DNA of 32,000 bases from Nostoc sp. PCC 7120 = FACHB-418 (GTDB lineage Bacteria > Cyanobacteriota > Cyanobacteriia > Cyanobacteriales > Nostocaceae). How positions within the stretch are numbered: the stretch's first letter is position 1; each line of letters opens with the position of its first letter. A model generated the notes under the pieces. It was not told the origin of the DNA and made no database searches. It saw nothing but the letters and a program-made list of their open reading frames with translations. Both the position numbers and the translations under genes were made by a program. Where the stretch lies: NCBI RefSeq assembly GCF_000009705.1, contig NC_003276.1, positions 300,001 to 332,000 of the forward strand. The letters are read 5' to 3'. Below are positions 19-13,999 of this stretch, piece after piece.

Positions 19-399
19 ATGGGTAAATATATTATTTTCAAAGCTGAGTCAATGTCAGCAGAAGGTTGGGAGTCAAGGCGATTGGCTCATACTGAGGCTT
101 ATACCAGCATACTTACTGAACATTATGATTCTTCTAATTCTCCAATACCACAACCAGGATATAGACTCAGAGAATATCATCAAGTATCTAAGTTTGCAGA
201 TAAGCAGTTTCCTGATTCGAGTACCCACAGCAGAATCGGGGATTGGAAAGTGACTAGAGTTGAAGAATATACCCCAGAAATTCCCAATCATGATTTTGAG
301 GTTGTGGTTATTTGTTACTGCCAATACTCCCCAGTAACTACTCCACTAGAGCCAATGCCAGAAATTCAGGTTTCCCAAGAGGAACTACAGGAAGTTTAG
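19..399 (+). CDS. hypothetical protein, 126 aa
   Basis: Longest ORF in this stretch. AGGAGA (4-9) lies 9 nt upstream of the ATG. Overlapping ORFs 14..253(+) and 73..324(-) look like frame shadows. No recognisable motif. Confidence 0.5.
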   Translation: MGKYIIFKAESMSAEGWESRRLAHTEAYTSILTEHYDSSNSPIPQPGYRLREYHQVSKFADKQFPDSSTHSRIGDWKVTRVEEYTPEIPNHDFEVVVICYCQYSPVTTPLEPMPEIQVSQEELQEV

Positions 400-776: not shown

Positions 777-2987
777 GTGCGTGTCAAAACTCCCACTGTC
801 ATACAAATGGAAGCGGCCGAATGTGGAGCAGCTTCCCTAGCGATTATTCTTGCCTACTATGATAGCATTGTCCCCTTAGCCGAACTCCGCATTGAGTGCG
901 GAGTTTCCCGTGATGGGAGCAAAGCCTCTAATATCATTCTTGCTGCTCGACGCTATGGAATGGTTGCAGACGGCTTTAAAGCAGAACACCTAGAACAACT
1001 CCAAGACTTAACTCCCCCCTACATCGTTTTTTGGAACTTCAATCATTTTCTGGTAGTGGAAGGATTGAGCAAACATTGGGTGTTCCTCAATGACCCCGCT
1101 ACTGGTCCCCGCAGGGTTTCCTGGGAGGAATTTGACGAAAGTTTTACAGGGGTTGTCCTAGTGATGGAACCTGGTGCCGACTTTAACAAAGGCGGTCGCA
1201 AACCCAGTGTCATCTTAGGCTTGATAGACCGTTTGCGGGGTTCAATTGGTTCAATTTTATACTGCATTTTCGCCGGATTTTTCTTGGTGTTGCCCGGTTT
1301 AGCAATTCCGGTTTTCAGTCAGGTGTTTGTGGATCATGTTCTGGTGGAAAGTCGCACTGAATGGCTGCGTCCCCTAATTTTAGGGATGATTCTTACCACG
1401 GTGTTTCAAGGACTGCTGACACTACTCCGACTGCGCTATTTGAGAAAGTTGAGGATTAAGTTGGCTGTGGGAATGTCCACTCGCTTCCTGTGGCATATTC
1501 TGAGATTACCTGTGAGATTTTATGCCCAAAGGTATGCAGGAGAAGTTAGCAATCGCGCCAGTTTGAATAATAAGGTGGCTGAGGTGCTTTCCGGGCAATT
1601 GGCAACTACAGTTATTGATGTAGTTATGATCTTGTTCTACGCCCTAGTGATGTTTGCCTATGATTGGGTATTAACGTTAATTGGGATCTGTTTTACTGCG
1701 ATCAATGGGTTAGCCTTGCAATGGGTTGCTAGACATCGCGTAGATGCAAATATACGTTTGATACAGGATTGGGGAAAAGCAACTGCGGTGAGTATTGCAG
1801 CGATTCAGAGTATCGAAACGTTGAAAGCATCAGCTTTAGAGTCGGATTTCTTTTCCCGATGGTCTGGATATTATGCCAAAGCTGTTAGCGCACAGCAAGA
1901 TTTAGAAGTCACAAATCAAATATTAGGGATTTTGCCCATACTGCTGGCCTCTTTAACTTCGATGTTAATTTTAGTCGTTGGAGGTTGGCGGGTAATGGAT
2001 GGGAATCTCAGCATTGGGATGTTGGTGGCATTTCAAAGCTTGATGCTGAGTTTTCAGCAGCCTGTCAACACTTTAGTAGATTTCGGTACTACTCTCCAGG
2101 AATTAGAAGGGGATTTAAATCGCTTAGATGATGTGTTAAGCAATTCCCTTGATCCAGAGGTGGAGATGGTAAGCAGGGAAGCAGGGGAGCAGAGGGAGCA
2201 GGGGAGAGGGGGAGATGAGGAGAAATCCAAAATCGAAAATCCAAAATCGAAAATCCAAAATTTGCAAGGTTATGTGGAGTTACGAAATATCACTTTTGGT
2301 TACTCTCATATTGACCCGCCATTGATTGAGGACTTCAGTTTATCGTTGCAACCAGGACAAAGAGTAGCGTTGGTTGGTGCAAGTGGTTCGGGGAAATCAA
2401 CCTTGGCTAAATTAATCTGTGGACTTTATCAACATTGGGAAGGAGAAATTCTTTTCGACGGGATTAAAAGAAGCGAAATTCCGCGTCATGTGTTGGCGAG
2501 TTGTCTGTCGCTGGTAGAGCAGGATATCTTTTTATTTGGGGGGACGGTGCGGGATAACCTAACGTTATGGGATGCTACAGTTCCAGATGAGCAGCTTGTA
2601 CAAGCTTGTCAAGATGCAGCTATCCATGAAGCGGTAATGGCAATTCCGGGGGGATATGATGGGGAATTGTTGGAGGGAGGGGCTAATTTAAGTGGGGGAC
2701 AGCGCCAGAGGCTAGAAATTGCCCGTGCGTTGGTAAAAAATCCAGCTATTTTAGTAATGGATGAGGCGACATCTGCGTTGGATGCCCAGACAGAACAAAT
2801 TATTATGGAAAATCTGCGACGGCGCAACTGTAGTTGCATACTAGTAGCGCACCGTTTGAGTACGATTCGCGATTGTGATGAGATTATTGTTTTAGAACAG
2901 GGGAAGGTGGTGCAACGCGGGACTCACGATGAGTTATGGCAAGAAGGAGGAGTTTATGAGCGGTTAATTCGTGCTGAGGAACGATAG
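777..2987 (+). CDS. peptidase-C39-domain ABC transporter (PCAT; double-glycine peptide processing and export; NHLM-type peptidase/permease/ATPase subunit)
   Basis: 736-aa ORF. C39 motif QMEAAECGAAS (Cys codon 822-824), His in NFNHF (1044-1046), Asp in NDPA (1092-1094). Followed by a multi-TM ABC membrane domain. Walker A GASGSGKST, signature LSGGQRQR, Walker B ILVMDEATSALD, H-loop VAHRLS. The GTG start directly follows an in-frame TAA, so the start is uncertain. Confidence 0.95.
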   Translation: MRVKTPTVIQMEAAECGAASLAIILAYYDSIVPLAELRIECGVSRDGSKASNIILAARRYGMVADGFKAEHLEQLQDLTPPYIVFWNFNHFLVVEGLSKHWVFLNDPATGPRRVSWEEFDESFTGVVLVMEPGADFNKGGRKPSVILGLIDRLRGSIGSILYCIFAGFFLVLPGLAIPVFSQVFVDHVLVESRTEWLRPLILGMILTTVFQGLLTLLRLRYLRKLRIKLAVGMSTRFLWHILRLPVRFYAQRYAGEVSNRASLNNKVAEVLSGQLATTVIDVVMILFYALVMFAYDWVLTLIGICFTAINGLALQWVARHRVDANIRLIQDWGKATAVSIAAIQSIETLKASALESDFFSRWSGYYAKAVSAQQDLEVTNQILGILPILLASLTSMLILVVGGWRVMDGNLSIGMLVAFQSLMLSFQQPVNTLVDFGTTLQELEGDLNRLDDVLSNSLDPEVEMVSREAGEQREQGRGGDEEKSKIENPKSKIQNLQGYVELRNITFGYSHIDPPLIEDFSLSLQPGQRVALVGASGSGKSTLAKLICGLYQHWEGEILFDGIKRSEIPRHVLASCLSLVEQDIFLFGGTVRDNLTLWDATVPDEQLVQACQDAAIHEAVMAIPGGYDGELLEGGANLSGGQRQRLEIARALVKNPAILVMDEATSALDAQTEQIIMENLRRRNCSCILVAHRLSTIRDCDEIIVLEQGKVVQRGTHDELWQEGGVYERLIRAEER
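2173..2263 (+). repeat. in-frame low-complexity insertion in the TMD-NBD linker: purine-rich GCAGGGGA-like repeats followed by six AAAATC[C/G]-type heptamers
   Basis: 2222-2263 reads gaaatcc aaaatcg aaaatcc aaaatcg aaaatcc aaaattt (6 x 7 = 42 nt, in frame). It encodes ...EQGRGGDEEKSKIENPKSKIQNLQ between the membrane domain and the ATPase. Confidence 0.85.
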
Positions 2988-3112
2988 CCGAATTTAGACC
3001 AACGGGGTGCCAGGTATCGAAATTGCCAAAAGCCACATAAAACCAATTCGCAATTAAACTAAGCCACTCACAAGGGGTGGGGTTTTTACTACCTTGCGAT
3101 ACAAGGACTGTT

Positions 3113-3135: not shown

Positions 3136-3162
3136 GAACCTTCACTTTTTGATAAATAGGTT

Positions 3163-3196
3163 AAAAGCCTATTGTTAAATCTTCTTAACAATGGGC
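3163..3196 (-). terminator. rho-independent terminator after precursor A
   Basis: 12-bp stem gcctattgttaa/ttaacaatgggc with loop atcttc. On the minus strand it is followed by TTTT (plus-strand aaaa at 3163-3166). Confidence 0.6.
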
Positions 3197-3259
3197 TGAG
3201 GTGCTTTAGTGATAAGCTGATGAGGAAAGAATACCTAACCCCGACTGCTTACTCGTTTC

Positions 3260-3391
3260 TCACTCAATCATCCAAGTAGGTCCGCCAGCTACACTATCCA
3301 GATGTTTCAAGCTGAGTGGTTGAAGTTGTGAAAGTTTCTTGTCTTGGGCTTTTTGGGCTGTGTTGGTTTTCGTCTGTTGTTTATCGGTCAT
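3260..3391 (-). CDS. double-glycine-leader precursor peptide A, 43 aa, core PTWMIE
   Basis: Hand translation: MTDKQQTKTNTAQKAQDKKLSQLQPLSLKHLDSVAGG|PTWMIE*. Leader has hydrophobics at -4, -7, -12 and -15 and GG at -2/-1. An in-frame TGA two codons upstream fixes the ATG. Below the ORF-track length cutoff. Confidence 0.8.
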   Translation of the reverse strand: MTDKQQTKTNTAQKAQDKKLSQLQPLSLKHLDSVAGGPTWMIE

Positions 3392-3442
3392 TGCTTTTCA
3401 CCCATTTTTATTTAATTGGAATAAGAGATTTTCACAATTGCA

Positions 3443-3450
3443 GCGATCGC
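3443..3450. repeat. HIP1 site GCGATCGC (example; more than 20 in the window)
   Basis: Exact octamer. Other copies include 6036-6043 and 9040-9047, and others near 9676, 10053, 10177, 10588, 11686, 11726, 12194, 15655, 16378, 16852, 17850, 19793, 27958, 28672, 28954 and 31456. Confidence 0.95.
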
Positions 3451-3469
3451 TCTGACTGTTCAGGGAACT

Positions 3470-3555
3470 CTCGTCACCCGCCATCCACGAGATTTTGAGC
3501 AAGCCCCTAAGTCCAGTATTTCATCAATTCTTAACAGATTGAGTCTGCCTTGAGC
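3470..3555 (-). pseudogene. probable decayed F-type precursor gene (unit A)
   Basis: By-eye alignment to the 3' two-thirds of gene F. Flanked by the homologous promoter and downstream spacer. Start codon and first ~20 codons are absent. Confidence 0.35.
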
Positions 3556-3568
3556 AAAGGTTACAGCG

Positions 3569-3577
3569 ATTCTATCA
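3569..3577 (-). promoter_or_regulatory. candidate extended -10 promoter (TGaTAGAAT) of unit A
   Basis: Plus-strand attctatca is TGATAGAAT on the minus strand. Conserved in four units and homologous to the F promoter. Confidence 0.4.
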
Positions 3578-3676
3578 GGGAGCAGGTCAAACTTGTCAGT
3601 TCAGGTGTACTATTTGTCTATGATCGCCTTAGATGACTCAGAACTTACGAAGCTCAAAGGTATTGTTCCACGATTC

Positions 3677-3739
3677 CACGATGAGTTATGGCAAGGAGGA
3701 GGAGTTTATGAGCGTTTAATTCGTGCTGAGAAACGATAG
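3677..3739 (+). pseudogene. duplicated 3'-end fragment of the PCAT gene (copy 1)
   Basis: Same length as 2925-2987 with a few substitutions. Reads HDELWQGGGVYERLIRAEKR* versus the genuine HDELWQEGGVYERLIRAEER*. No upstream ORF. Confidence 0.9.
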
Positions 3740-3800
3740 CCGAATTTAGACCAACAGGGTGCCAGGTATCGAAATTGCCAAAAGCCACATAAATTAAGTT

Positions 3801-3834
3801 AAAAGCCCATTGTTAAATCTTCTTAACAATGGGC
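3801..3834 (-). terminator. rho-independent terminator after precursor B
   Basis: Perfect 12-bp stem gcccattgttaa/ttaacaatgggc (3805-3816 / 3823-3834), 6-nt loop, minus-strand TTTT tail. Confidence 0.6.
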
Positions 3835-3900
3835 TGAGGTGCTTTAGTGATAAGCTGATGATGAAAAAATACCCAACCCCGACTTCTTGTTTCTACAAGA

Positions 3901-4035
3901 TCAGATCGCCCAAACAACAACCCGTCCGCCAGCTACACTATCCAGATGTTTCAAGCTGAGTGGTTGAAGCTGTGAAAGTTTCTTGTCTTGGGCTTTTTGG
4001 GTTGTCTTGGTTTTCGGCTGTTGTTGGTTGGTCAT
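3901..4035 (-). CDS. double-glycine-leader precursor peptide B, 44 aa, core RVVVWAI
   Basis: MTNQQQPKTKTTQKAQDKKLSQLQPLSLKHLDSVAGG|RVVVWAI*. Lies inside track ORF 3901..4110. Start placed at the ATG conserved in all copies. Confidence 0.8.
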   Translation of the reverse strand: MTNQQQPKTKTTQKAQDKKLSQLQPLSLKHLDSVAGGRVVVWAI

Positions 4036-4113
4036 TGCTTCTACCTTACTTTTATTGAATTGGAATAAGAGATTTTCACAATTGCGATGATCGCTGTTGC
4101 TGTTAAGCAAATT

Positions 4114-4199
4114 CTAGTCATCCGCCATCCACGAGATTTTGAGCAAGCCCCTAAGTCCAGTATTTCATAAATTTGTAACCAATTGAGTCTGCCTTGAGC
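4114..4199 (-). pseudogene. probable decayed F-type precursor gene (unit B)
   Basis: Ends ...tggatggcggatgacTAGaatttgcttaacagcaa, matching the F end ...tatacggatgacTAGaatttgcttaacagcaa. The upstream part gctcaaggcagac resembles gcccaagacaag of F. No start codon. Confidence 0.45.
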
Positions 4200-4212
4200 A
4201 AAGGTTACAGCG

Positions 4213-4221
4213 ATTCTATCA
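4213..4221 (-). promoter_or_regulatory. candidate extended -10 promoter (TGaTAGAAT) of unit B
   Basis: Same 9-mer and same context (ctgacaagtttgacctgctccc upstream on the minus strand). Confidence 0.4.
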
Positions 4222-4312
4222 GGGAGCAGGTCAAACTTGTCAGTTCAGGTGTACTATTTGTCTGAGATCGCCTTAGACGACTCAGAACTTACGAAGCTCA
4301 AAGGCACTGTTC

Positions 4313-4372
4313 CCCGATGAATTATGGCGAGGAGGAGTTTATGAGCGGTTAATTCGTGCTGAGGAACGATAG
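4313..4372 (+). pseudogene. duplicated 3'-end fragment of the PCAT gene (copy 2)
   Basis: Reads PDELWRGGVYERLIRAEER*. Has a 3-nt deletion relative to 2925-2987. Followed by the same ccgaatttagaccaacagggtgccaggtatcgaaattgccaaaagccaca tail. Confidence 0.9.
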
Positions 4373-4433
4373 CCGAATTTAGACCAACAGGGTGCCAGGT
4401 ATCGAAATTGCCAAAAGCCACATAAATTAAGTT

Positions 4434-4467
4434 AAAAGCCTATTGTTACATCTTCTTAACAATGGGC
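4434..4467 (-). terminator. rho-independent terminator after precursor C
   Basis: Same hairpin, with small variations, at 4438-4467 plus the T tail on the minus strand. Confidence 0.55.
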
Positions 4468-4532
4468 TGAAGTGCTTTAGTGATAAGCTGATAGGAAAGA
4501 ATACCCAACCCCAACTTCTCATTTCTACAAGA

Positions 4533-4667
4533 TCAGATCGCCCAAACAACCAGCATTCCGCCAGCTACACTATCCAGATGTTTCAAGCTGAGTGGTTGAA
4601 GCTGTGAAAGTTTCTTGTCTTGGGCTTTTTGGTCTGTGTTGGTTTTCGTCTGTTGTTTATCGGTCAT
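4533..4667 (-). CDS. double-glycine-leader precursor peptide C, 44 aa, core MLVVWAI
   Basis: Hand translation, codon by codon: MTDKQQTKTNTDQKAQDKKLSQLQPLSLKHLDSVAGG|MLVVWAI*. Not in the ORF track. Confidence 0.8.
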   Translation of the reverse strand: MTDKQQTKTNTDQKAQDKKLSQLQPLSLKHLDSVAGGMLVVWAI

Positions 4668-4767
4668 TTCTTCTACCTCACTTTGATTTAATTGAAATTA
4701 ACAAATGTTTACAATTGCGGCGATACCTTCGGTAAGCTTCGCTAACGCTCTTACTGTTCAGGGAACT

Positions 4768-4853
4768 CTCGTCACCCGCCATCCAAGAGATTTTGAGCAA
4801 GCCCCTAAGTCCAGTATTTCATAAATTCGTAACCAATTGAGTCTGTCTTGAGC
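4768..4853 (-). pseudogene. probable decayed F-type precursor gene (unit C)
   Basis: Same as unit A. Confidence 0.35.
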
Positions 4854-4866
4854 AAGGGTTACAGCG

Positions 4867-4875
4867 ATTCTATCA
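4867..4875 (-). promoter_or_regulatory. candidate extended -10 promoter (TGaTAGAAT) of unit C
   Basis: Same 9-mer. Confidence 0.4.
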
Positions 4876-4966
4876 GGGAGCAAGTCAAACTTGTCAGTTC
4901 ATGTGTAATATTTATCTGTGATCGCCTTAGACGACTCAGAACTTACGAAGCTCAAAGGTATTGTTC

Positions 4967-5029
4967 CACGATGAGTTATGGCAAGAAGGAGGAGTTTATG
5001 AGCGTTTAATTCGTGCTGAGGAACGATAG
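4967..5029 (+). pseudogene. duplicated 3'-end fragment of the PCAT gene (copy 3)
   Basis: Reads HDELWQEGGVYERLIRAEER*, identical at protein level to the genuine C-terminus. Confidence 0.9.
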
Positions 5030-5090
5030 CCGAATTTAGACCAACAGGGTGCCAGGTATCGAAATTGCCAAAAGCCACATGAATTAAGTT

Positions 5091-5124
5091 AAAAGCCCAT
5101 TGTTAGACCTTCTTAACAATGGGC
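5091..5124 (-). terminator. rho-independent terminator after precursor D
   Basis: Same hairpin at 5095-5124 plus the T tail on the minus strand. Confidence 0.55.
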
Positions 5125-5189
5125 TGAGGTGCTTTAGTGATAAGCTGATAGGAAAGAATACCCAACCCCAACTTCTCATTTCTACAAGA

Positions 5190-5324
5190 TCAGATCGCCC
5201 AAACAACAACCTGTCCGCCAGCTACACCATCCAGATGTTTCAAGCTGAGTGGTTGAAGTGGTGAAAGTTTCTTGTCTTGGGCTTTTTGAGTTGTGTTGGT
5301 TTTCGTCTGTTGTTTATCGGTCAT
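5190..5324 (-). CDS. double-glycine-leader precursor peptide D, 44 aa, core QVVVWAI
   Basis: MTDKQQTKTNTTQKAQDKKLSPLQPLSLKHLDGVAGG|QVVVWAI*. Lies inside track ORF 5190..5372. Confidence 0.8.
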   Translation of the reverse strand: MTDKQQTKTNTTQKAQDKKLSPLQPLSLKHLDGVAGGQVVVWAI

Positions 5325-5427
5325 TTCTTCTACCTTACTTTTATTTAATTGGAATAAGAGATTTTCATTCACAATTGCGGCGATACCTTCGGTAAGCTTC
5401 GCTAACGCTCTTACTGTTCAGGGAACT

Positions 5428-5513
5428 CTCGTCACCCGCCATCCAAGAGATTTTGAGCAAGCCCCTAAGTCCAGTATTTCATCAATTCTTAACAGGTTGA
5501 GTCTGCCTTGAGC
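5428..5513 (-). pseudogene. probable decayed F-type precursor gene (unit D)
   Basis: Same as unit A. Confidence 0.35.
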
Positions 5514-5526
5514 AAAGGTTACAGTG

Positions 5527-5535
5527 ATTCTATCA
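5527..5535 (-). promoter_or_regulatory. candidate extended -10 promoter (TGaTAGAAT) of unit D
   Basis: Same 9-mer. Confidence 0.4.
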
Positions 5536-5626
5536 GGGAGCAGGTCAAACTTGTCAGTTCAGGTGTAATATTTATCTGCAATCGCCTTAGACGACTCAGA
5601 ACTTACGAAGCTCAAAGGCACTGTCC

Positions 5627-5689
5627 CCCGATGAATTATGGCGAGAAGGAGGAGTTTATGAGCGGTTAATTCGTGCTGAGGAACGATAG
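5627..5689 (+). pseudogene. duplicated 3'-end fragment of the PCAT gene (copy 4)
   Basis: Reads PDELWREGGVYERLIRAEER* and has the same downstream tail. Confidence 0.9.
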
Positions 5690-5749
5690 CCGAATTTAGA
5701 CCAACAGGGTGCCAGGTATCGAAATTGCCAAAAGCCACAAAAATAGGTT

Positions 5750-5783
5750 AAAAGCCCATTGTTAAATCTTCTTAACAATGGGC
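5750..5783 (-). terminator. rho-independent terminator after precursors F and E
   Basis: Perfect copy of the hairpin at 5754-5783 plus the T tail on the minus strand. Confidence 0.6.
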
Positions 5784-5849
5784 TGAGGTACTTTAGTGAT
5801 AAGCTTATGAAGAAAGAATACCCGGCCCCGACTTCTCGTTTCTACAAGA

Positions 5850-5984
5850 TCAGACCGCCCAAACAAGCTGCTGTCCGCCAGCTACACTATCCAGATGTTT
5901 CAAGCTGAGTGGTTGAAGCTGTGAAAGTTTCTTGTCTTGGGCTTTTTGGGCTGTCTTGGTTTTTGTCTGTTGTTTATTGGTCAT
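5850..5984 (-). CDS. double-glycine-leader precursor peptide E, 44 aa, core QQLVWAV
   Basis: Hand translation: MTNKQQTKTKTAQKAQDKKLSQLQPLSLKHLDSVAGG|QQLVWAV*. Not in the ORF track. Confidence 0.8.
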   Translation of the reverse strand: MTNKQQTKTKTAQKAQDKKLSQLQPLSLKHLDSVAGGQQLVWAV

Positions 5985-6062
5985 TGCTTTTCACCCACTT
6001 TTATTTAATTGGAATAAGAGATTTTCACAATTGCGGCGATCGCTCTTGCTGTTAAGCAAATT

Positions 6063-6197
6063 CTAGTCATCCGTATAAGCTACCCAACCTGCGGCTACAC
6101 CCTCTAACTGTTTCAAGCTTACTGGTTGAAGCTGTGAAAGTTTCTTGTCTTGGGCTTTTTGGGCTGTCTTGGTTTTCGGCTGTTGTTGGTTGGTCAT
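6063..6197 (-). CDS. divergent precursor peptide F, 44 aa, AG cleavage variant, core WVAYTDD
   Basis: Hand translation: MTNQQQPKTKTAQKAQDKKLSQLQPVSLKQLEGVAAG|WVAYTDD*. GAGG lies 8 nt upstream of the ATG. Sits only 78 nt upstream of gene E with no hairpin between them, so the two are probably co-transcribed. Confidence 0.75.
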   Translation of the reverse strand: MTNQQQPKTKTAQKAQDKKLSQLQPVSLKQLEGVAAGWVAYTDD

Positions 6198-6307: not shown

Positions 6308-8449
6308 ATGACAGAAAAAGCCCTACGGGAACTAGCCTCTGTCCTCAATCCCGCCGCTAATCTTCCCCAAGGAGAAACACCCTTACTAGTTGCTGTGGGT
6401 GCTGTAGGAAAAGCATTGGGGATAACTATTCGCCCACCTGCAAAAACTGAAATTCTTCTTAGCGGACTCCCGGAAACCCTCTTAGGAATTGCCCGTGCTT
6501 CTGGTTTCCGCATCCGTCGAGTTACCCTCATACCCAACTGGTGGAAAACAGATTGCGGTTCTCTAGTAGCTTTTACTCAAGCAGAAAATCGCCCTGTTGC
6601 TCTACTCAGGGTAAAAGCTAACAAGTATGAGATACTTGACTCTGTAGATTTGACGTACACTCCTGTCAACCGCCAAACTGCTGCACAACTCGCACCCATC
6701 GCCTATACTTTTTATCGCCCCTTACCAGACAAAGAAATTACATTCTTAGATATGCTGCAATTTACCCTTAGAGGGAGTACAGCAGATTTGCTGAAAATCC
6801 TCTGGGTGGGAGTATTTGCAACTTTGTTCGGGATGTTTACCCCGCAAATAACAGGCATTCTCATCGACTATGCCATTCCCGATGCGAACCGCCAATTATT
6901 AATTGAGATGGGTTTAGGGTTGTTAGCCGCTAGCTTTGGGGTGACAATCTTTCAACTGACTCAAGCTTTTGCCATTTTGCGAGTACAAACCCAAGTCAGT
7001 TACGATACTCAAGCTGCGGTTTGGGATCGACTCCTCAAACTTAAACCCGCCTTTTTTCGCTCCTATTCCACAGGGGATCTCTATAATCGCGTCTCCGCTA
7101 TGACTCAGATTCGCAACCGATTGAGCGGTAGCATTCTGCGAACCTTATTCACGAGTATATTCTCATTGTTAAATTTGGGATTGCTATTAATCTATAGTTT
7201 TCCTCTGGCATTAGTAGCAATGGCGATCGCTTTGGTAATAGTTCTGATTACTACTATTATTAGTCTGCTTACCCGCCGAAAATTACGTCCCCTCCAGCAG
7301 CTTTCGGGAGACATTCTGGGACTAACAGTGCAGTTAATCGGTGGAGTCTCTAAACTGCGAGTTGCTGCTGCTGAATCAGAGGCGTTTGCTTACTGGGCAA
7401 AAAAATACACTCAGCAGGTAAAACTGATGTTAAGTACCCAATTCATTGAAGATGTGCTGACCACCTTTAATGTTATGCTGCCAGCAGTCAGTTCAATTGC
7501 GCTGTTTGGATTGTCTGTTTCCTTGCTGGGAAAGGCTGAGGGAGGAACGGGATTATCTACGGGGACATTTCTCGCCTTTAATACTGCCTTTGGTACTTTT
7601 ATCGCCAGTGCCACAAGATTAAGCAACACCCTCATAGATATTTTAGAAATCACGATTTTATGGGAACGCACCCAACCCATTTTAAAAACAAAACCAGAAG
7701 TTGATGCTGATAAATTCCATCCTGGCAAGCTTTCTGGTGAAATTAAATTAAACCAAGTTAGCTTTCGCTACCGCCAAGATAGTCCTTTAGTTTTAGAGAA
7801 TATCGCGCTAGAAGCCAAAGCCGGGGAATTTATTGCGATTGTCGGAGCATCGGGAAGTGGAAAATCCACTGTTCTAAGGTTATTACTGGGATTTGAAACC
7901 CCAGAGGCAGGAACAATCTCCTATGATGGCAGAGATTTGTCGGGATTAGATATTGCAGCCGTGCGGCGACAATTGGGAGTAGTGCTGCAAAATGGGCGAA
8001 TTATGAGTGGTTCGATTTGGGAGAATATTGCTGGGGGCGCAATTGTTACCCAAGATGAAGCTTGGTCAGCATTGCAGATGGCTGGATTAGCGGAGGATGT
8101 GGAAGCAATGCCTATGGGGATACATACTATTATTTCCGAAGGAGGGGGCAACGTTTCAGGAGGACAGCGCCAGAGGTTATTTATCGCCCGTGCGTTGGTA
8201 CATAAACCGCAGATTTTACTGTTTGATGAGGCGACATCGGCGTTAGATAATCGCACCCAGGCGATCGTGACTCAAAGTTTAGCACAATTGGGAGTCACTC
8301 GCGTAGTGATTGCCCATCGTTTAAGTACAATTCGTCATGCAGACATGATTTATGTGCTGCAAGCAGGGAAGATAGTCCAGCAGGGAAGTTTTGAGGAATT
8401 AGCAGCCGTTGAGGGGTTATTTGCTAATTTGATGGCGCGACAGAGATAG
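6308..8449 (+). CDS. ABC transporter permease/ATPase without an active peptidase motif (NHLM-type second ABC subunit)
   Basis: 713-aa ORF. The ~150-aa N-terminal domain lacks the Q..ECG peptidase motif. Followed by a TM domain, Walker A GASGSGKST, signature VSGGQRQR, Walker B LLFDEATSALD and H-loop IAHRLS. Confidence 0.93.
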   Translation: MTEKALRELASVLNPAANLPQGETPLLVAVGAVGKALGITIRPPAKTEILLSGLPETLLGIARASGFRIRRVTLIPNWWKTDCGSLVAFTQAENRPVALLRVKANKYEILDSVDLTYTPVNRQTAAQLAPIAYTFYRPLPDKEITFLDMLQFTLRGSTADLLKILWVGVFATLFGMFTPQITGILIDYAIPDANRQLLIEMGLGLLAASFGVTIFQLTQAFAILRVQTQVSYDTQAAVWDRLLKLKPAFFRSYSTGDLYNRVSAMTQIRNRLSGSILRTLFTSIFSLLNLGLLLIYSFPLALVAMAIALVIVLITTIISLLTRRKLRPLQQLSGDILGLTVQLIGGVSKLRVAAAESEAFAYWAKKYTQQVKLMLSTQFIEDVLTTFNVMLPAVSSIALFGLSVSLLGKAEGGTGLSTGTFLAFNTAFGTFIASATRLSNTLIDILEITILWERTQPILKTKPEVDADKFHPGKLSGEIKLNQVSFRYRQDSPLVLENIALEAKAGEFIAIVGASGSGKSTVLRLLLGFETPEAGTISYDGRDLSGLDIAAVRRQLGVVLQNGRIMSGSIWENIAGGAIVTQDEAWSALQMAGLAEDVEAMPMGIHTIISEGGGNVSGGQRQRLFIARALVHKPQILLFDEATSALDNRTQAIVTQSLAQLGVTRVVIAHRLSTIRHADMIYVLQAGKIVQQGSFEELAAVEGLFANLMARQR

Positions 8450-8543: not shown

Positions 8544-8687
8544 TCATCCAAGACCACTACCCCCAGATCCTGTTCTACCACCGATTACATTTTTCAAGTC
8601 TTCCAGTGAGAGTTGCGAGAGAGGCAGAACGTCAATTATTGATGATTTGCTTGTCTTAGAATGAGGTTGATAATTGGCTTTTTTCAT
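8544..8687 (-). CDS. double-glycine-leader precursor peptide G, 47 aa, core RTGSGGSGLG
   Basis: MKKANYQPHSKTSKSSIIDVLPLSQLSLEDLKNVIGG|RTGSGGSGLG*. Has the textbook LSxxDLxxVxGG motif. GGAGA lies 10 nt upstream of this ATG. It is the internal Met of track ORF 8544..8756. Confidence 0.7.
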   Translation of the reverse strand: MKKANYQPHSKTSKSSIIDVLPLSQLSLEDLKNVIGGRTGSGGSGLG

Positions 8688-8735
8688 ATCAAAGATATCT
8701 CCGATTTTAGAAATGAGAGTATAAATTTTTGGTAT

Positions 8736-8763
8736 TTTATACTGACTTAATGTCAAGTTTCAA
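8736..8763 (-). promoter_or_regulatory. candidate sigma70-type promoter of precursor G (TTGAAA, 16-nt spacer, TATAAA)
   Basis: Minus-strand TTGAAA (8758-8763) and TATAAA (8736-8741) with a 16-nt spacer. Lies about 50 nt upstream of the ATG at 8687. Confidence 0.35.
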
Positions 8764-8788
8764 GATTTTTACATCTAAAATTACATGA

Positions 8789-10237
8789 ATGTCTGACAAA
8801 AAACGCAGTATCTTTCGTCAACAAGCACTTGATCGCCTATCTTCTCCAGAACGTTTGGATCATTTGATGCAAGTTGTTAACCACAAAGATTGGTTATCTT
8901 TGGGCGGATTGGCTATTTTTGGGGTTTTAGGTGTACTCTGGAGCGTGTTTGGTAATATTCCCATCACAGTCACAGGAAAGGGAGTGTTAATTAATCCCCG
9001 GCGGGTGGTGCAGTTTCAGTCTCCGATATCGGGACAGGTGCGATCGCTAAATGTTAAAGATGGACAATGTGTAGCCAAGGATGATATTCTCGCCACCATC
9101 GATCCCTCTCAACAAAAACAGCAATTACAGCAACAACGGGATAAACTAGCTCAATTACAACGACAAGTCCAAAAAACTACTTTACTGCGACAACAACAAA
9201 CCCAGTTAGAAACAGAAGCGATTGCTGCTGAAAGAACAAGTTTAAAACAACGGTTGCAAAATACTCAAAAATTAGCTCCTCGCCTGCAAGATGAAGGATT
9301 AAATAGCATTGACCAACAGCGTCTTAGTCTTCAAGAACGTCTCAAAGATGTAGAAGAATTAACGCCTGTACTCCAAAAAAGAGTTGAAAAACAACGGGAA
9401 TTGCAAAAGCAAGGAGCAATTTCCGAAGAACAAGTTTTACAAGCAGAACAAGAATATCGCCAAACCCGTCAGAATATCTCAAAGATTAAAGCACAGTTAC
9501 AGCAATTACGAGTCCAAGAAACAGAACAACAGCAAAAATATTTGGAAAATAAAAATAATATTACCCAAATTAACGCTGAGTTAGAAAAATTAAATACCCG
9601 TAGCAAACAACTAGAACAGAATAATCTAGCAGCTGATAATACTGAAAACAATCAAATTCAGGAATTGCAGCAAGCGATCGCTCGCTGGGAAAAAGAAGTT
9701 GCAGACAACAGTACCATTAAAAGTTCTCACGCTGGATGTATTGTAGAAATAACCGCTACTCTAGGGCAATATCTCAGTCCAGGCAACCGTCTAGGAACTT
9801 TGCAAATATCTGGACAAGCCAGCGAAATGATGAGCGTTGCTTATTTTAGGGTACAAGATGGCAAGCAAATTAAACCAGGAATGCCGATTTTAATTACACC
9901 AGATACGGTCAAGCGGGCAAGATTTGGGGGGATTGTCGGGAAAATTACTAATATTTCAGCCTTTCCTGTCACCTCGGAAGGTGCAAGTTCTGTAGTAGGA
10001 AACCCAGAATTAGTCCAAAAAGTGATGGATGGGGAAGGAGGGAAAATAGAGGCGATCGCGCAATTAAAACTTGACCCTAAGAACTTTAGCGGTTATGAGT
10101 GGTCATCTTCTGATGGGCCAAAGTTGGCAATTTCTCCAGGAACAACTACCACTGTCAGAGTAACAGTAGAAGAGCGATCGCCCATCACTTTTGTTTTGCC
10201 AATTTTAAGGGAGTGGAGTCGGCTAGAAAATCTTTGA
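8789..10237 (+). CDS. HlyD-family membrane fusion / secretion adaptor protein (NHLM-type)
   Basis: 482-aa ORF. N-terminal FRQQALDRLSSPERLD, a single TM helix (WLSLGGLAIFGVLGVLWSVFG), barrel/lipoyl segments around a ~200-aa Q/E/K-rich coiled coil. Confidence 0.9.
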   Translation: MSDKKRSIFRQQALDRLSSPERLDHLMQVVNHKDWLSLGGLAIFGVLGVLWSVFGNIPITVTGKGVLINPRRVVQFQSPISGQVRSLNVKDGQCVAKDDILATIDPSQQKQQLQQQRDKLAQLQRQVQKTTLLRQQQTQLETEAIAAERTSLKQRLQNTQKLAPRLQDEGLNSIDQQRLSLQERLKDVEELTPVLQKRVEKQRELQKQGAISEEQVLQAEQEYRQTRQNISKIKAQLQQLRVQETEQQQKYLENKNNITQINAELEKLNTRSKQLEQNNLAADNTENNQIQELQQAIARWEKEVADNSTIKSSHAGCIVEITATLGQYLSPGNRLGTLQISGQASEMMSVAYFRVQDGKQIKPGMPILITPDTVKRARFGGIVGKITNISAFPVTSEGASSVVGNPELVQKVMDGEGGKIEAIAQLKLDPKNFSGYEWSSSDGPKLAISPGTTTTVRVTVEERSPITFVLPILREWSRLENL

Positions 10238-10361: not shown

Positions 10362-11207
10362 TTGGAGTTGATTTGCTATCGAATCTGGACGAAAACCACT
10401 GAATTAAAACAAGTGGAATATGAATACACCACCTTCCAGGCGCAAAAAATCAGTTCTGCCCAATCTAGGGATAATACATCACCAGATAACTTTGCCCAGA
10501 AGGATATCTCCAAAGAAGAAAATCCAGCTACAGCAACTATTACAGTTAATGCTGTTGAGATACCTGAATTAACCGAGCAGGAGCAGAGCGATCGCCTGTT
10601 TTTAAAACGTAAGGTCGAAAGGGCGTTTTTTGAAGCGGGGAAGGCACTCATGGAACTGCGCGATCGCAGATTGTACCGTTCGACCCATGCAACATTTGAG
10701 GAGTATTGTAAGGACAGGTTTGGATACAACCGTTCTCGTTCCTACCAGCTAATTGATGCCGCTATCGTTGTGGACAATCTGCAAAAATGTCCACAATTTG
10801 TGGACATTTTACCAACAGCCGAAGGTCAAGTACGCCCTTTAACAAAGCTTGAACCGCAAGAACAGCAAGAGGCTTGGCCAACTGCTGTGGAAGAAACTGG
10901 TGGTAAAGTGCCAACTGGCCGCATCGTTAAAGATGTGGTGCAGCGAATTATGGAGCGCACCCAAGTACCTAATAGTTATCAGATTGGCGAAGTGTGCCAA
11001 ATCTTAGCTAAAGATAACCCCGAACTCAGAGGCAAAGGCGGGTGTTGGTGCATAGTGGTTGCTGTCCATGACTTCAGTTGTACCGTTAGAATTTGGGACG
11101 GAGAACTGACGGCTGGGCTGAAGCATCTCAAGTCCTTCGATTACTTGCCTGTGGAATGTCAGCAGATGCAGGAGATTTGCGATGGCGTTCCGCAAGAGCG
11201 TAGCTGA
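10362..11207 (+). CDS. hypothetical protein with a ParB/KorB-like helix-turn-helix segment
   Basis: 281-aa ORF with a TTG start and no in-frame ATG before residue ~95. Contains the motif LMELRDRRLYRSTHATFEEYCKDRFGYNRSRSYQLIDAAIVVDNL, typical of ParB-like DNA-binding proteins. Both start and 3' end are uncertain. Confidence 0.5.
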   Translation: MELICYRIWTKTTELKQVEYEYTTFQAQKISSAQSRDNTSPDNFAQKDISKEENPATATITVNAVEIPELTEQEQSDRLFLKRKVERAFFEAGKALMELRDRRLYRSTHATFEEYCKDRFGYNRSRSYQLIDAAIVVDNLQKCPQFVDILPTAEGQVRPLTKLEPQEQQEAWPTAVEETGGKVPTGRIVKDVVQRIMERTQVPNSYQIGEVCQILAKDNPELRGKGGCWCIVVAVHDFSCTVRIWDGELTAGLKHLKSFDYLPVECQQMQEICDGVPQERS

Positions 11208-11466
11208 TCGCATCGGTCGGATGTACCCCGGTGATTTAGAAGGGTCGGTGCAGAGGTTTTTGGAGTCGCTAGGCAAGCTAAACTGACGCAATATTTCTTA
11301 AACTTGAGATTTCCTCGATAATAATCATAGAGTTAAGTATATCCACTGATTTTGCACAATCTTTATAAAGAATTTATTCCTAAAGATAAGTATATAAGTG
11401 TATTCTCGTATCAATGTCGATAAAATCACATTGAATTTTATTTTTACGTATATAAATCAGAGTAAT

Positions 11467-12207
11467 ATGATGGAAAATTTTCAAGTTCAAGAACTGCTGA
11501 TTGTGATCGCTGTTCGGCAGCAAAACCCCAGTATTTTGACCGCAGACTTTCTCAAGTATACGGGGATTATCCCCAGTGACTGGGAATTAGCTAGACCACC
11601 AGTTTTAACCAACACTGCGGCTCAGGTTGTTTACCAGAATGGTGTGAGCATTGTTGCAGAGGTCAATAGGGTGATTTTTGCAGAAGCGATCGCCAATAAA
11701 GAAGCAAGCGATGTGCAAATTGCGGCGATCGCTCATAAATATATTGAAACAGTCAAACAAGTGGACTATCAGGGCGTGGGAATTAACTTACGAGGACTTG
11801 CACCTTACGAGCCAGAAAACTTGGGCGGACGCAACTACACGTTTAGTAAACTTCTCCAACCAGGAGCATGGCAGGATTTTGGTTCTGCGCCTGTAGAAGC
11901 GTCAATGAGGCTAGTTTATACGCTGAACGAGACTCAGCTATATCTGGATATTAATGAAGCTCAATTACAGTATCCAGACAAAACTACTAAGCCAGCAGTT
12001 TTGTTTTCGGCTAACTTCAGTCGAGCGATAAATCACGAAGAACCAGCAGCACGGTTGGCAGCTATCAGTGCAGTGATTGACAAGTGGCAAGGTGATGTTA
12101 AAACACTCAAAGAGCTTGTCAATAGTAAGTTTTTGGATAATCAAAGCTATTCCATCAATACGGCAACGACTGAGACGCTGTTATTTCCTGCTGCGATCGC
12201 TGGGTAA
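11467..12207 (+). CDS. hypothetical protein, ~246 aa
   Basis: Track ORF 11398..12207. The first ATG (ATGATG at 11467) is preferred over the GTG at 11398, which lies in AT-rich promoter-like sequence. No motif recognised. Confidence 0.55.
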   Translation: MMENFQVQELLIVIAVRQQNPSILTADFLKYTGIIPSDWELARPPVLTNTAAQVVYQNGVSIVAEVNRVIFAEAIANKEASDVQIAAIAHKYIETVKQVDYQGVGINLRGLAPYEPENLGGRNYTFSKLLQPGAWQDFGSAPVEASMRLVYTLNETQLYLDINEAQLQYPDKTTKPAVLFSANFSRAINHEEPAARLAAISAVIDKWQGDVKTLKELVNSKFLDNQSYSINTATTETLLFPAAIAG

Positions 12208-12983
12208 TTTTAAAGATTTATTTTCGTTTCATTTAAAGAGATGCTTATTTGTTCATACCTTTGGTAGCTCGTGGCTACTTGGTTTTTGATGTGTAAGTGA
12301 TTACCCTTAATTATTTAATACCCCTTACTCTCAGCATTTTTTGATGAACCTATCCCACCCTGAAAAAGCTCATTAAGAAGATGAATAATACTTATATCCT
12401 CCGTAACAATCTAGTTGTAGAGTCTCCCTTAATTATTGACCTAACTATGTTAGGGGTTTTAGAACAATCTCTGGTTCTGCTGCAAGAACGACTGCGAGCT
12501 TTTGCTGATGACTCAGATTTTGCTCAAAAGATGGCAGTAGCTTTTGGGGAAGGGGTTGCGGTTGAGTCTTTACGAACAACGTGGTTGGCAGGGGATTTTA
12601 GTATTATTCCTCAAATAGCGATTCGCAATGCAGCAGATATTAATGGTGCGAATGGAGTTTATGGGGTATTTACTAACCGGATTTATCTATCTTGGGAATT
12701 TTTGCAAGCGAATCAGGGGAATCCAGAAAATTTAGTAGAGTTGTTGCTAGAGGAAATTGGGCATCGAGTTGATAGTGTTTTGAACAATAGCGATAGTGCT
12801 GGGGATGAAGGGGCAATTTTCTCTGCATTAGTGCAAGGAAAAAGTTTTGGTAATGAAGCTTTGGCACGCTTAAAGGCGGAGGATGATTCAGCAGTTATTA
12901 CTATTTATGGGCAGGTTATCGCAGTTGAACAGCAGAATTTCACTGGTACTAATGGAAATAACACAATAATCGGAACCTCTGGC

Positions 12984-13183
12984 GACGACACAATTAACGC
13001 AGGATTAGGAAGCGATAGTGTAGATGGTGGTGCAGGGAATGAACTGTTAATCGTCGATTATTCTAGTAACACTTATACTGGTACAAGTTCCGGCATATCA
13101 AGTTCGGTATCCAGCAATGGCGCAGGGGGATTTAACGGTTATTATCAAGCCTACAATGGCTCTAGTTACGATACAGTTAATTT
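12984..13183 (+). repeat. direct repeat R1, left part (paralog of 15332-15533)
   Basis: Differs from 15332-15533 by 4 substitutions plus a 2-nt indel. Confidence 0.9.
13176..13183. repeat. target-site duplication, left copy (gttaattt, possibly 9 bp including c)
   Basis: The same 8-mer directly flanks the other IS end at 14861-14868. The uninterrupted paralog at 15526-15540 reads gttaatttctctaac. Confidence 0.85.
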
Positions 13184-13208
13184 CTAGCGTGGCAAAACTT
13201 ACTAGAGA
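13184..13208. repeat. IS terminal inverted repeat (left in window)
   Basis: ctagcgtggcaaaacttactagaga is the exact reverse complement of 14836-14860. Confidence 0.9.
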
Positions 13209-13999
13209 AGACGACTCTCTAGATTAGCCAAGTAAGCCTTGGGGTCTCTGCGAAATCGATACTGTTCAATTCTGGCTTTGTGGTGTTTTTGCAATTGAGA
13301 GCGTAATTCGAGCCAAGTATGAATATCAACTTGTGCTAAATCAGATGCGGTAAAAGAATGAAGCTTAGTAGCTATCGCACAGGCAAGTTTGACAGAACCA
13401 CGAATAACGAGAGATGAGGGGGCAACCTTACGACCGGTACAACGACGTTGATGATAACGTAGCATACCAAAAGCGTGTTCTAAGTCATTATTAGTTCTAG
13501 GAAAATCTTCAATTTCATAACAATGAAAAAGTCCAGACCAGTAGCTGTGGGTGGTTTTTATAAAGTTATCGATTGCAGTGTTCAGGGTACCAGCTTTCTG
13601 CTTTTGTTGAGACATTTCTGTCAACAGTTGCTGATAACTTTGTTTGACCCCAGCAGCATCAAGACCTATTTTATTGTTGAGAATATTACTAGCTTTATCA
13701 ACCCACTGATATGCAACCCTCACAGGTGAAAATAAAGATGCAGTAGCAGATAATCCCTTAGCTAGAAGGTGTTTTAGGTTAACTAAAGGTGGTGGTAAAG
13801 CACTTCTTTTTTCCATCCTTTCTAAGCTTTGTTCTATCAAAGTCAAATTTTCTTGTAACTTTAATCCAGATGCCTCTAACGGTGGATGTCCATCATTGGT
13901 TATAGAACTACGGACTGCCGAGCAATAATCTTCAATAATAGTCACCAAATCCTTATCTTCATTGGTAACACTACGTTCAATTTCTCGTAATCCTCTAAC
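13202..13999 (-). CDS. transposase, C-terminal part (other frame, open back to the A10 run)
   Basis: The frame of track ORF 13202..13948 stays open upstream and reads KKKVRGLREIERSVTNEDKDLVTIIEDY... from the A run. Its stop lies inside the left IR. Confidence 0.7.
   Translation of the reverse strand, partial: VRGLREIERSVTNEDKDLVTIIEDYCSAVRSSITNDGHPPLEASGLKLQENLTLIEQSLERMEKRSALPPPLVNLKHLLAKGLSATASLFSPVRVAYQWVDKASNILNNKIGLDAAGVKQSYQQLLTEMSQQKQKAGTLNTAIDNFIKTTHSYWSGLFHCYEIEDFPRTNNDLEHAFGMLRYHQRRCTGRKVAPSSLVIRGSVKLACAIATKLHSFTASDLAQVDIHTWLELRSQLQKHHKARIEQYRFRRDPKAYLANLESRLL

Follow-up and report, generated by a model that had tools for sequence, protein, structure and literature searches.

A plasmid-borne tandem array of putative double-glycine leader peptides with ultrashort cores beside a three-part exporter in Nostoc sp. 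PCC 7120

The 32,000-nucleotide stretch analyzed here (the window; positions 300,001 to 332,000 of the forward strand of contig NC_003276.1, Nostoc sp. PCC 7120) carries six small open reading frames (ORFs), named A to F, on the minus strand at 3260-6197. Each consists of a 37-amino-acid leader of the double-glycine (GG) type followed by a core of 6-7 residues. The array is flanked by plus-strand transporter genes, with a C39-peptidase ATP-binding cassette (ABC) transporter on one side and a second ABC subunit (ABC2) plus an HlyD-type protein on the other. From the sequences, we consider it probable that this is a tandem array of GG-leader peptides with a dedicated three-part exporter, which would release unmodified ultrashort peptides. 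The products of the array genes, 43-44 amino acids long, are encoded as follows:

3260..3391, minus strand: precursor A, leader MTDKQQTKTNTAQKAQDKKLSQLQPLSLKHLDSVAGG ending in SVAGG, then a 6-residue core, PTWMIE
3901..4035, minus strand: precursor B, core RVVVWAI (CDS39 in Table S3 of Wang et al. 2011)
4533..4667, minus strand: precursor C, core MLVVWAI (CDS40 in the same table)
5190..5324, minus strand: precursor D, core QVVVWAI (annotated as asl7296, from an upstream GTG at 5372)
5850..5984, minus strand: precursor E, core QQLVWAV (CDS41 in the same table)
6063..6197, minus strand: precursor F, diverged leader LQPVSLKQLEGVAAG ending in AAG (GVAAG), core WVAYTDD

Within this array, the start of the core diverges faster than all other parts of the repeat unit, non-coding DNA included, and the rate contrast is real. 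As coding sites are few, the unit itself was taken as an internal neutral yardstick, and the full units B-E were aligned with MAFFT (606 ungapped columns). The mean pairwise difference was 0.407 in the first nine nucleotides of the core, 0.076 in the non-coding DNA, and 0.020 in leader codons 13-37, and the core start ranked first in divergence among 598 sliding 9-nt windows. Variable sites made up 6/9 of the core-start window versus 76/597 elsewhere (Fisher p=3e-4), while the leader block was less variable than the non-coding DNA (3/75 versus 63/471, p=0.011). Relaxed constraint alone cannot explain a rate above that of non-coding DNA, and the core-start divergence fits selection for different products. 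Nei-Gojobori proportions of synonymous (pS) and non-synonymous (pN) differences, which rest on few sites, were 0.036 and 0.014 for leader codons 13-37 of A-E, 0.17 and 0.11 for leader codons 1-12 of all six genes, and 0.11 and 0.23 for the core of B-E. In B-E, pN reached 0.47 in the first three core codons, and the last four core codons gave a pS of 0.00 and a pN of 0.054. The leader-versus-core substitution check suggested by a first-pass annotation of this DNA returned a pN/pS of ~2 for the core (B-E) and ~0.4-0.6 for the leader, again with few sites.

That annotation had described a constant leader block followed by variable residues, and the ORF translations agree with it. A, B, C, and E share all of leader residues 13-37, from which D departs by two substitutions (Q22P, S33G) and F by five (L26V, H30Q, D32E, S33G, G36A). 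The two residues after the cleavage site read P-T, R-V, M-L, Q-V, Q-Q, and W-V from A to F, each of the six array cores holds exactly one Trp, and the variation among B-E is concentrated in the first 2-3 residues of the core, on a (V/L)VWA(I/V) scaffold. The description of the A core as entirely different did not hold: the TGG of A and its next codons align with W-A-I of B-E after a 6-nt gap (W-M-I versus W-A-I). Since the Trp of A aligns with that of B-E, five of the six array Trp residues are probably a single inherited one, and the occurrence of one Trp per core carries little statistical weight. The residue is found at core position 3, 5, or 1, which makes the feature compositional and not positional.

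The proposal of diversifying selection on the core combined with a purifying constraint on the leader survives in its first half, as the core start outruns the whole unit, but the identity of the leaders is mostly a DNA-level phenomenon. Indeed, counting synonymous positions too, only 0-1 nt separates the copies of codons 13-37 (75 nt) in A, B, C, and E, and the flanking non-coding DNA is ~92% identical. Because the copies are young or homogenized, the leader identity in the array is mostly not evidence of protein-level purifying selection. The leaders are also mosaics: B differs from F at 1 position and from C at 7 in codons 1-12, versus 11 and 0, respectively, in codons 13-37. This indicates recent duplication and either gene conversion or recombination, whose breakpoint lies close to codon 12. 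The unit thus appears to undergo concerted evolution, with the core start escaping homogenization. A population comparison was uninformative, since the array sequences of seven independent assemblies agree at 99.9-100%; each assembly has the six ORFs unbroken, and these differ only by one D12A change. An apparent loss of gene D in L002 is explained by an N-run assembly gap.

The precursor genes lie in tandem units of 633-660 bp, as resolved by a repeat search and alignment, that are 80-97% identical, non-coding DNA included. Tandem Repeats Finder reported no repeat, the unit period of ~650 exceeding the 500-nt limit of the program. Gene F lies 79 nt upstream of E, with a start-to-start distance of 213 bp, and has no terminator of its own. 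An intrinsic terminator (a 12-14-bp hairpin and a U-run) is found ~65 nt past each of A-E by the repeat search, a terminator scan (matches at 3835-3804 and 5125-5094), and RNA folds. Two repeat families recur in the units:

3154-3250 (A), 3792..3888 (B), 4425-4521 (C), 5082-5178 (D), and 5741-5837 (E), minus strand: conserved 3' segments with the hairpin and U-run, family D5
3677..3793, 4310-4426, 4967-5083, and 5627-5743, plus strand: copies of the end of the C39-peptidase transporter gene (last ~20 codons plus stop), family D4, 86-97% identity

The original of family D4 is at 2925-3041. Its copies, one per internal unit, are antisense-oriented relative to the array genes and are ORF fragments reading ...HDELWQ(G/E)GGVYERLIRAE(K/E)R. 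Transcription reading through the terminator of a unit would yield RNA antisense to the 3' end of the transporter gene. Each copy is followed by ~230 nt of unit-specific sequence with a mapped start site (equivalent to window position 3508). Upstream of A-D (3440-3500, 4085-4140, 4720-4790, and 5380-5450, minus strand) there is a copy of the F-E spacer and of the last ~11 coding nucleotides of F. These copies mark the duplication junctions; the F-derived sequence GGATGACTAG is unaltered ahead of B but carries mutations ahead of A, C, and D. The presence of a complete decayed F-type gene in each unit was considered and rejected, as only the last ~11 coding nucleotides and the spacer align convincingly, the rest being uncertain. 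In a metagenomic relative, L013, an intact F-type gene with the core PTWMIE occupies the position matching the spacer copies. The ancestral repeat may have been a two-gene module.

A word-indexed search for related precursors returned only 5 new proteins; profiling 1.84 billion representatives raised this by 9, and one gene was read from a contig, leading to a family of 21 distinct members. The plasmids of PLSDB held nothing matching the array. A scan of genome contigs with the precursor alignment gave 105 pattern matches, none of which was confirmed, and a degenerate DNA pattern for QKAQDKKLSQLQP had 0 matches in metagenome contigs. The leader is exactly 37 amino acids long in 21/21 members, with Met1, Gln5, Lys8, Lys14, Lys19, Leu-15, Leu-10, and Leu-7 invariant, Val or Leu at position -4 in all, and Gly at -2 in 19/21. 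It is because of these invariant positions and this fixed length that real leader constraint becomes visible, and it does so only in the wider family. Leaders A-E carry V-4, L-7, L-12, L-15, and GG, in line with the double-glycine motif; the leader of F ends in A-2/G-1, which is atypical for the C39 protease class.

The 21 cores range from 6 to 23 amino acids (mostly 6-9), and their 192 residues include 0 Cys, with 6% W, 5% F, and 3% Y. The Trp once described as invariant is a property of this array only, being absent from 10 of the 21 cores (PHIYNE, PTLYGDM, PPAINGDGM, ATFSDPFGGGYVKTL, PHINTNF, PGLISGAEM, FANPFA, VLLFANPFA, FANPFNG, and VTSSEGKTIGAGTVTEIIE). Likewise, the parallel drawn in the first-pass annotation with the hypervariable cores of prochlorosins is reversed between species, where cores are kept while leaders drift, as for PTWMIE and FANPF. 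In L013, the gene with the F-like promoter encodes a leader that differs from that of A at 7/37 residues and an identical PTWMIE core. Between the two cores, 3/3 synonymous sites and 0/15 non-synonymous sites have changed (p=0.0012): the PTWMIE core is under purifying selection. The FANPFA and FANPFNG cores are kept at 49% leader identity, and PHIYNE and PHINTNF at 68%. The cores are thus discrete conserved types under purifying selection and not free-running hypervariable sequence. Arrays combine several such types, with the VWA(I/V) type varying in its N-terminal 2-3 residues.

These data bear on a first alternative, in which recent tandem duplication and gene conversion would have produced the pattern incidentally, without any selection for diversity; redundant copies would be decaying, and one or none of the peptides would matter. 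Such an origin is in keeping with the identity of the units down to their non-coding DNA, with the recombination seen in the mosaic leaders, and with the junk in the internal units (pieces of the transporter gene's 3' part as well as an F-type 3' end). In addition, relatives L012 and L021 manage with one precursor, and the transporter is disrupted in one strain. However, the six ORFs are free of frameshifts and premature stops in all seven assemblies, and relaxed constraint cannot give a divergence five-fold above that of the non-coding DNA of the unit. The divergence is also confined to 9 nt, with hardly any change in the 3' flank or in the four codons that follow (VWAI), and PTWMIE is under purifying selection. 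We consider this alternative unlikely.

The tandem peptide array that we favor would be served by the products of three plus-strand genes:

777..2987, plus strand: peptidase-containing ABC transporter (PCAT; C39 peptidase, transmembrane domain, and ATPase), TIGR03796 at 1202 bits (cutoff 853), Pfam Peptidase_C39, ABC_membrane, and ABC_tran
6308..8449, plus strand: second ABC transporter subunit (ABC2), TIGR03797 at 1025 bits (cutoff 709)
8789..10237, plus strand: HlyD-type membrane-fusion (periplasmic adaptor) protein, TIGR03794 at 338 bits (cutoff 156), Pfam HlyD/Biotin_lipoyl_2

The PCAT has a Peptidase_C39 domain (PF03412, E=5.5e-33), and its N-terminal 144 amino acids match LahT150 (PDB 6mpz), a characterized double-glycine protease of broad specificity, with an E value of 1.6e-43. 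The Cys of ECGAAS, the His of FNHF, and the Asp of NDPA are kept in the alignment to LahT150, the Cys and the NHF His also in that to PCAT1, and the C39 domain matches ComA structures as well. The N-terminal 160 amino acids of ABC2 match neither Pfam C39 nor any PDB entry, and hence contain no recognizable peptidase domain.

The cores might instead be modified by an unlinked enzyme, either a radical S-adenosylmethionine (SAM) enzyme forming a cyclophane, as in triceptides and darobactin, or a Trp prenyltransferase. They would then be true RiPPs (peptides made by the ribosome and modified after translation), with the N-terminal half of the leader as a recognition element. Leader positions -37 to -16 are indeed conserved, yet a C39 domain needs only ~13-14 residues; the cores are aromatic-rich, often in aromatic-x-x contexts; and the leaders weakly match TIGR04495, the XyeA triceptide precursors (E=0.002-0.04). 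However, these matches reach 14-18 bits against a cutoff of 33, and aromatic residues are missing from three family cores. Neither the 32-kb window nor the 10 kb upstream encodes a radical-SAM, LanM, cyclodehydratase, prenyltransferase, or other RiPP enzyme, and the 16-kb Calothrix locus described below has no radical-SAM or other RiPP enzyme either. In relatives, no neighbor besides the exporter is conserved, the only shared module being the precursor with PCAT, ABC2, and HlyD. Modification in trans is therefore an improbable explanation. Assignment as a XyeA triceptide was rejected on the sub-cutoff scores and on the absence of the radical-SAM maturase from every locus examined (window, 10 kb upstream, and Calothrix). 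The only matches of the leader were sub-threshold ones to XyeA and L_biotic_typeA.

The peptides might also be structural, with the hydrophobic, beta-prone RVVVWAI, MLVVWAI, and QVVVWAI self-assembling outside the cell as matrix or amyloid-like material. The hydropathy of B-D (GRAVY 1.9-2.8) would suit this role, a giant RTX/Calx-beta adhesin-like gene lies nearby, and EbfG1-4/PteB provides a cyanobacterial precedent for secreted products with a GG motif in biofilms (PMC4997328; PMC12267927). The A and F cores are, however, acidic and not hydrophobic, family cores such as PGLISGAEM and PEDDDNSGGQGSNAW are not aggregation-prone, and a 2025 Anabaena biofilm survey did not pick the cluster of the window as an EbfG-like candidate, which makes a structural role very unlikely.

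Part of the array had been catalogued before. ORFs B-E coincide, at an offset of exactly 300,000, with four plasmid alpha (BA000020) ORFs tabulated by Wang et al. 2011 (PMC3140520, Table S3): CDS39 (303901-304035), CDS40 (304533-304667), asl7296 (305190-305372), and CDS41 (305850-305984). All four are on the reverse strand, are 44, 44, 60, and 44 amino acids long, and belong to a group V cluster labeled 'N11P'. B-E are thus already listed as putative bacteriocin precursors, while A and F are absent from that list. Haft et al. 2010 (PMC2887384) reported a second Trans-Cleave/Trans/Trans-Fuse set in PCC 7120 (GI 17233311/13/14), apart from the chromosomal set, that we infer from the gene numbering to be the cassette of the window. 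Literature searches by locus tag (asl7296 and its neighbors) found no paper, and no published experimental work on the array peptides was found.

The units also figure in a transcription record. Brenes-Alvarez et al. 2016 (PMC4734099) combined the start sites of the Mitschke 2011 differential RNA sequencing (dRNA-seq) with predicted terminators, and their Table S3 lists a 341-nt segment of plasmid alpha, 303508 -> 303167 on the reverse strand (reads 6/2/5/6), as 'Family1, 4 members'. A family in that study consists of several copies, each with a mapped start site and terminator. In window coordinates, the segment (3508->3167) begins 117 nt upstream of the ATG of gene A and ends at the hairpin past A, and the start-site-to-terminator segments agree with the hairpins found past A-E. 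By the family definition, weak transcription yields a separate mRNA from each of at least four units. A sigma-70 consensus scan identified no promoter. The array units filed in that screen as candidate small RNAs (sRNAs) are mRNAs for peptides. That the functional products are the ~340-nt RNAs, with incidental short ORFs, is hardly credible: the listing as a predicted sRNA family (start site and terminator) and the antisense copy of the PCAT 3' end just past each terminator speak for it, but the ORF, the 37-amino-acid leader length, and the GG motif are kept at the protein level down to ~50% leader identity, with synonymous changes, no Rfam family matches, the 3' regions fold no better than shuffles once the terminator hairpin is set apart, and the screen accepted any unannotated start-site-to-terminator segment.

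Returning to the peptide array, we propose that every unit would have a start site and a hairpin terminator of its own and be transcribed between the two. Leu-15, Leu-12, Leu-10, Leu-7, Val-4, and Gly-Gly of the basic 37-amino-acid leader would sit in the groove of the PCAT's LahT-like C39 domain, and the PCAT would cut after GG. The PCAT, ABC2, HlyD, and an unlinked outer-membrane channel would then export 6-7 residues, linear and probably unmodified, as PTWMIE, RVVVWAI, MLVVWAI, QVVVWAI, QQLVWAV, and WVAYTDD. Calculated [M+H]+ values for these unmodified forms are 776.37, 842.53, 831.48, 814.48, 843.47, and 869.37, respectively. The array would have arisen by repeated duplication of a ~650-bp unit that also holds the PCAT 3' end. 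Recombination would keep leaders and flanks near-identical, the first 2-3 core residues being driven or kept apart, and the cell would make several distinct products, namely variants of the (V/L)VWA(I/V) scaffold and two other core types. Size, composition, the lack of Cys, and the absence of linked modification or immunity genes mildly favor small diffusible effectors, signal-like or narrowly bioactive, which are more likely than classical pore-forming bacteriocins. The small size and the composition of the peptides, like the missing immunity and modification genes, argue, as far as the locus can tell, against a classical bacteriocin or RiPP.

Several points weigh against this proposal. Cleavage and export, like the lack of modification, the differing activities of the variants, and the biological role, are what we infer, and for the first two this counts against it. 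To our knowledge, a cargo of 6-7 residues is shorter than any proven GG-leader substrate. Precursor F may be cleaved poorly, and the N-terminal half of the leader is conserved though the C39 domain does not need it, which hints at a further partner. No linked immunity gene is recognizable and the window encodes no kinase or tetratricopeptide repeat (TPR) receptor, so that no linked receptor or immunity gene backs any particular role. The published transcription unit has only 19 dRNA-seq reads, indicating weak expression, the divergence statistics rest on ~6 variable sites, and the system seems dispensable in culture because the exporter genes are disrupted in one strain (L006, below). A bolder version of the proposal is that the array encodes unmodified 6-7-residue peptide signals, the shortest GG/PCAT cargo known, in a pheromone-like system that would be the first of its kind in a multicellular, Gram-negative cyanobacterium, with several 'dialects' on one plasmid and a specificity set by the 2-3 residues past the cleavage site on the VWA(I/V) scaffold; we regard it as doubtful.

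Among the closest known arrangements is the NHLP/Nif11 cassette of Haft et al. 2010, whose TIGR03796, TIGR03797, and TIGR03794 signatures are all above cutoffs in the window. Together with the group V clusters of Wang et al. 2011, it also shares the GG cleavage motif and the multiple precursor genes beside the transporter. The leaders there are ~60-80 amino acids long, versus 37 here, and here the cores are 6-7 residues without Cys and there is no linked LanM or cyclodehydratase. Despite the 'N11P' label, an NHLP (TIGR03793) or Nif11 (TIGR03798/PF07862) leader was rejected, with no match at E<=0.1 (NCBIfam) or E<=1 (Pfam).

Prochlorosins (ProcA/ProcM of Prochlorococcus MIT9313) and LahA1-9/LahT resemble the array in having many precursors, a conserved GG leader, divergent cores, and one promiscuous C39 transporter; the C39 domain of the window PCAT is closely related to LahT150. 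In contrast to these systems, the array cores are 3-4 times shorter, with no Cys and no lanthionine synthetase, and the array genes are true tandem repeats. Prochlorosin cores are also hypervariable throughout, whereas those of the array family form conserved types with drifting leaders. A prochlorosin-type class II lanthipeptide was rejected, as there is no LanM domain in the window or the 10 kb upstream and no Cys in the cores. A cyanobactin was rejected as well: each precursor has one C-terminal core and a GG leader, and the locus has no PatA/PatG-type protease gene, its only S8 domain being inside the giant RTX protein.

Gram-positive pheromone systems such as ComC (the competence-stimulating peptide, CSP) with ComAB and BlpC with BlpAB also rely on an unmodified linear peptide cut from a GG leader by a PCAT, with the allelic diversity mostly in the mature part. 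The ComC/BlpC pheromones are 17-27 amino acids long and encoded next to a histidine kinase/response regulator pair, with one allele per strain, whereas the array has 6-7-amino-acid cores, no linked sensor, six variants in one genome, and two membranes to cross (HlyD). The only experimentally studied cyanobacterial case is EbfG1-4/PteB of Synechococcus elongatus PCC 7942 (PMC4997328), where a PCAT and HlyD adjoin a tandem row of four small GG-motif genes. Mature EbfG products are, however, proteins of tens of residues that form an amyloid matrix, and they have no sequence similarity to the array peptides. The 2025 Anabaena survey named Alr7014, Alr1201, Alr5147, and Alr1927 as PteB homologs; the window PCAT is not among them. 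Lastly, XyeA triceptides and ultrashort aromatic RiPPs such as darobactin share a short precursor, a GG-type leader, a tiny core containing aromatic residues, ABC export, and weak hidden Markov model similarity with the array.

The order of PCAT, opposite-strand precursor(s), and ABC2 recurs in L012, L021, L011/L013, and Calothrix rhizosoleniae SC01 (L016). L012 and L021 have a single precursor each, with the cores RNSIWVI and FANPFNG, respectively, L013 and L011 (from one metagenome) together have at least six, three per contig, and the Calothrix locus has one family member among other GG peptides. The family is rare: among the 80 closest PCAT loci of species-representative genomes, a family-type leader was found in the Calothrix locus only. 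Compared with the window, the PCAT DNA of L011, L012, and L013 is 98-99% identical and the ABC2 DNA only 89-92%. The sequences suggest recombination within the cassette across the precursor array. In a near-identical strain (L006, AP018217.1), IS200/IS605-family elements (Y1 transposase, OrfB/TnpB) break the HlyD and PCAT genes at 251-1462 and 8655-10135; its six precursor genes are intact, making it a natural exporter knockout. Near other cyanobacterial PCAT genes, 25-codon stop-to-stop ORF fragments with no Met in the matched stretch (L073 128-205, L056 5585-5662, and L093 5554-5631) have leader-like sequences ending in ...PQLQPTCLKQLKE, ...RQLLPMSLKQLE, and ...AQMQPMSLEQ. These may be decayed relics of the 37-amino-acid leader family.

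Filamentous cyanobacteria carry many PCAT exporters, very few of which have a natural substrate or role assigned; HetC, for instance, still lacks a substrate (PMC10986499). The locus described here is a very simple test case, with six synthesizable peptides, one dedicated exporter, and a natural transporter-null strain. The cluster itself had been catalogued previously; what is new is the distinct fixed-length leader family, the ultrashort Cys-free cores, the way the units are built and evolve in concert, and the conserved core types. If the peptides are released and active, GG-leader export would extend to ultrashort cargo, with a handle on peptide communication or antagonism in Nostoc. If they are not, the locus would show how tandem duplication and recombination can mimic the signature of a conserved leader and hypervariable core. 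In either case, two annotations are corrected: the precursors are not of the Nif11 type, and 'sRNA family 1' is the mRNA family for the array peptides.

A seventh double-glycine small ORF, with an unrelated leader, is located in the spacer between ABC2 and HlyD:

8544..8687, minus strand: MKKANYQPHSKTSKSSIIDVLPLSQLSLEDLKNVIGG (leader end LSLEDLKNVIGG), then a 10-residue Gly/Ser-rich core, RTGSGGSGLG

It belongs to no Pfam family and has no homolog in the 80 related loci. In the Calothrix locus, a small ORF adjoining HlyD (L016 11342-11479) has a similar position.

On the other side of the cassette, the window begins with a 126-amino-acid ORF (19-399, plus strand) with no family match that recurs across a very large number of contigs (320 index blocks). 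It is preceded by a 60-amino-acid ORF and a 108-amino-acid XRE-type helix-turn-helix (HTH) gene (L014 9421-9996), the latter ~1 kb upstream of the PCAT gene, and all are co-oriented with PCAT. These genes just upstream of PCAT could be candidate regulators. The two ORFs after HlyD, at 10362-11207 and 11398-12207 (281 and 269 amino acids), are unrelated to the 269-amino-acid ORF of the Calothrix locus.

A 268-amino-acid RTX-repeat ORF follows at 12381-13187. Further on, a 5297-amino-acid ORF (15700-31593, plus strand) has Calx-beta, laminin-G, CARDB, immunoglobulin-like, and S8 subtilase domains, with ~22 matches to RTX nonapeptide repeats; it looks like a giant type-I-secreted adhesin-like protein. 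Between the exporter region and this gene, two minus-strand ORFs (13202-14783; 248 and 262 amino acids) resemble remnants of transposases; one of them has a weak MULE transposase domain.

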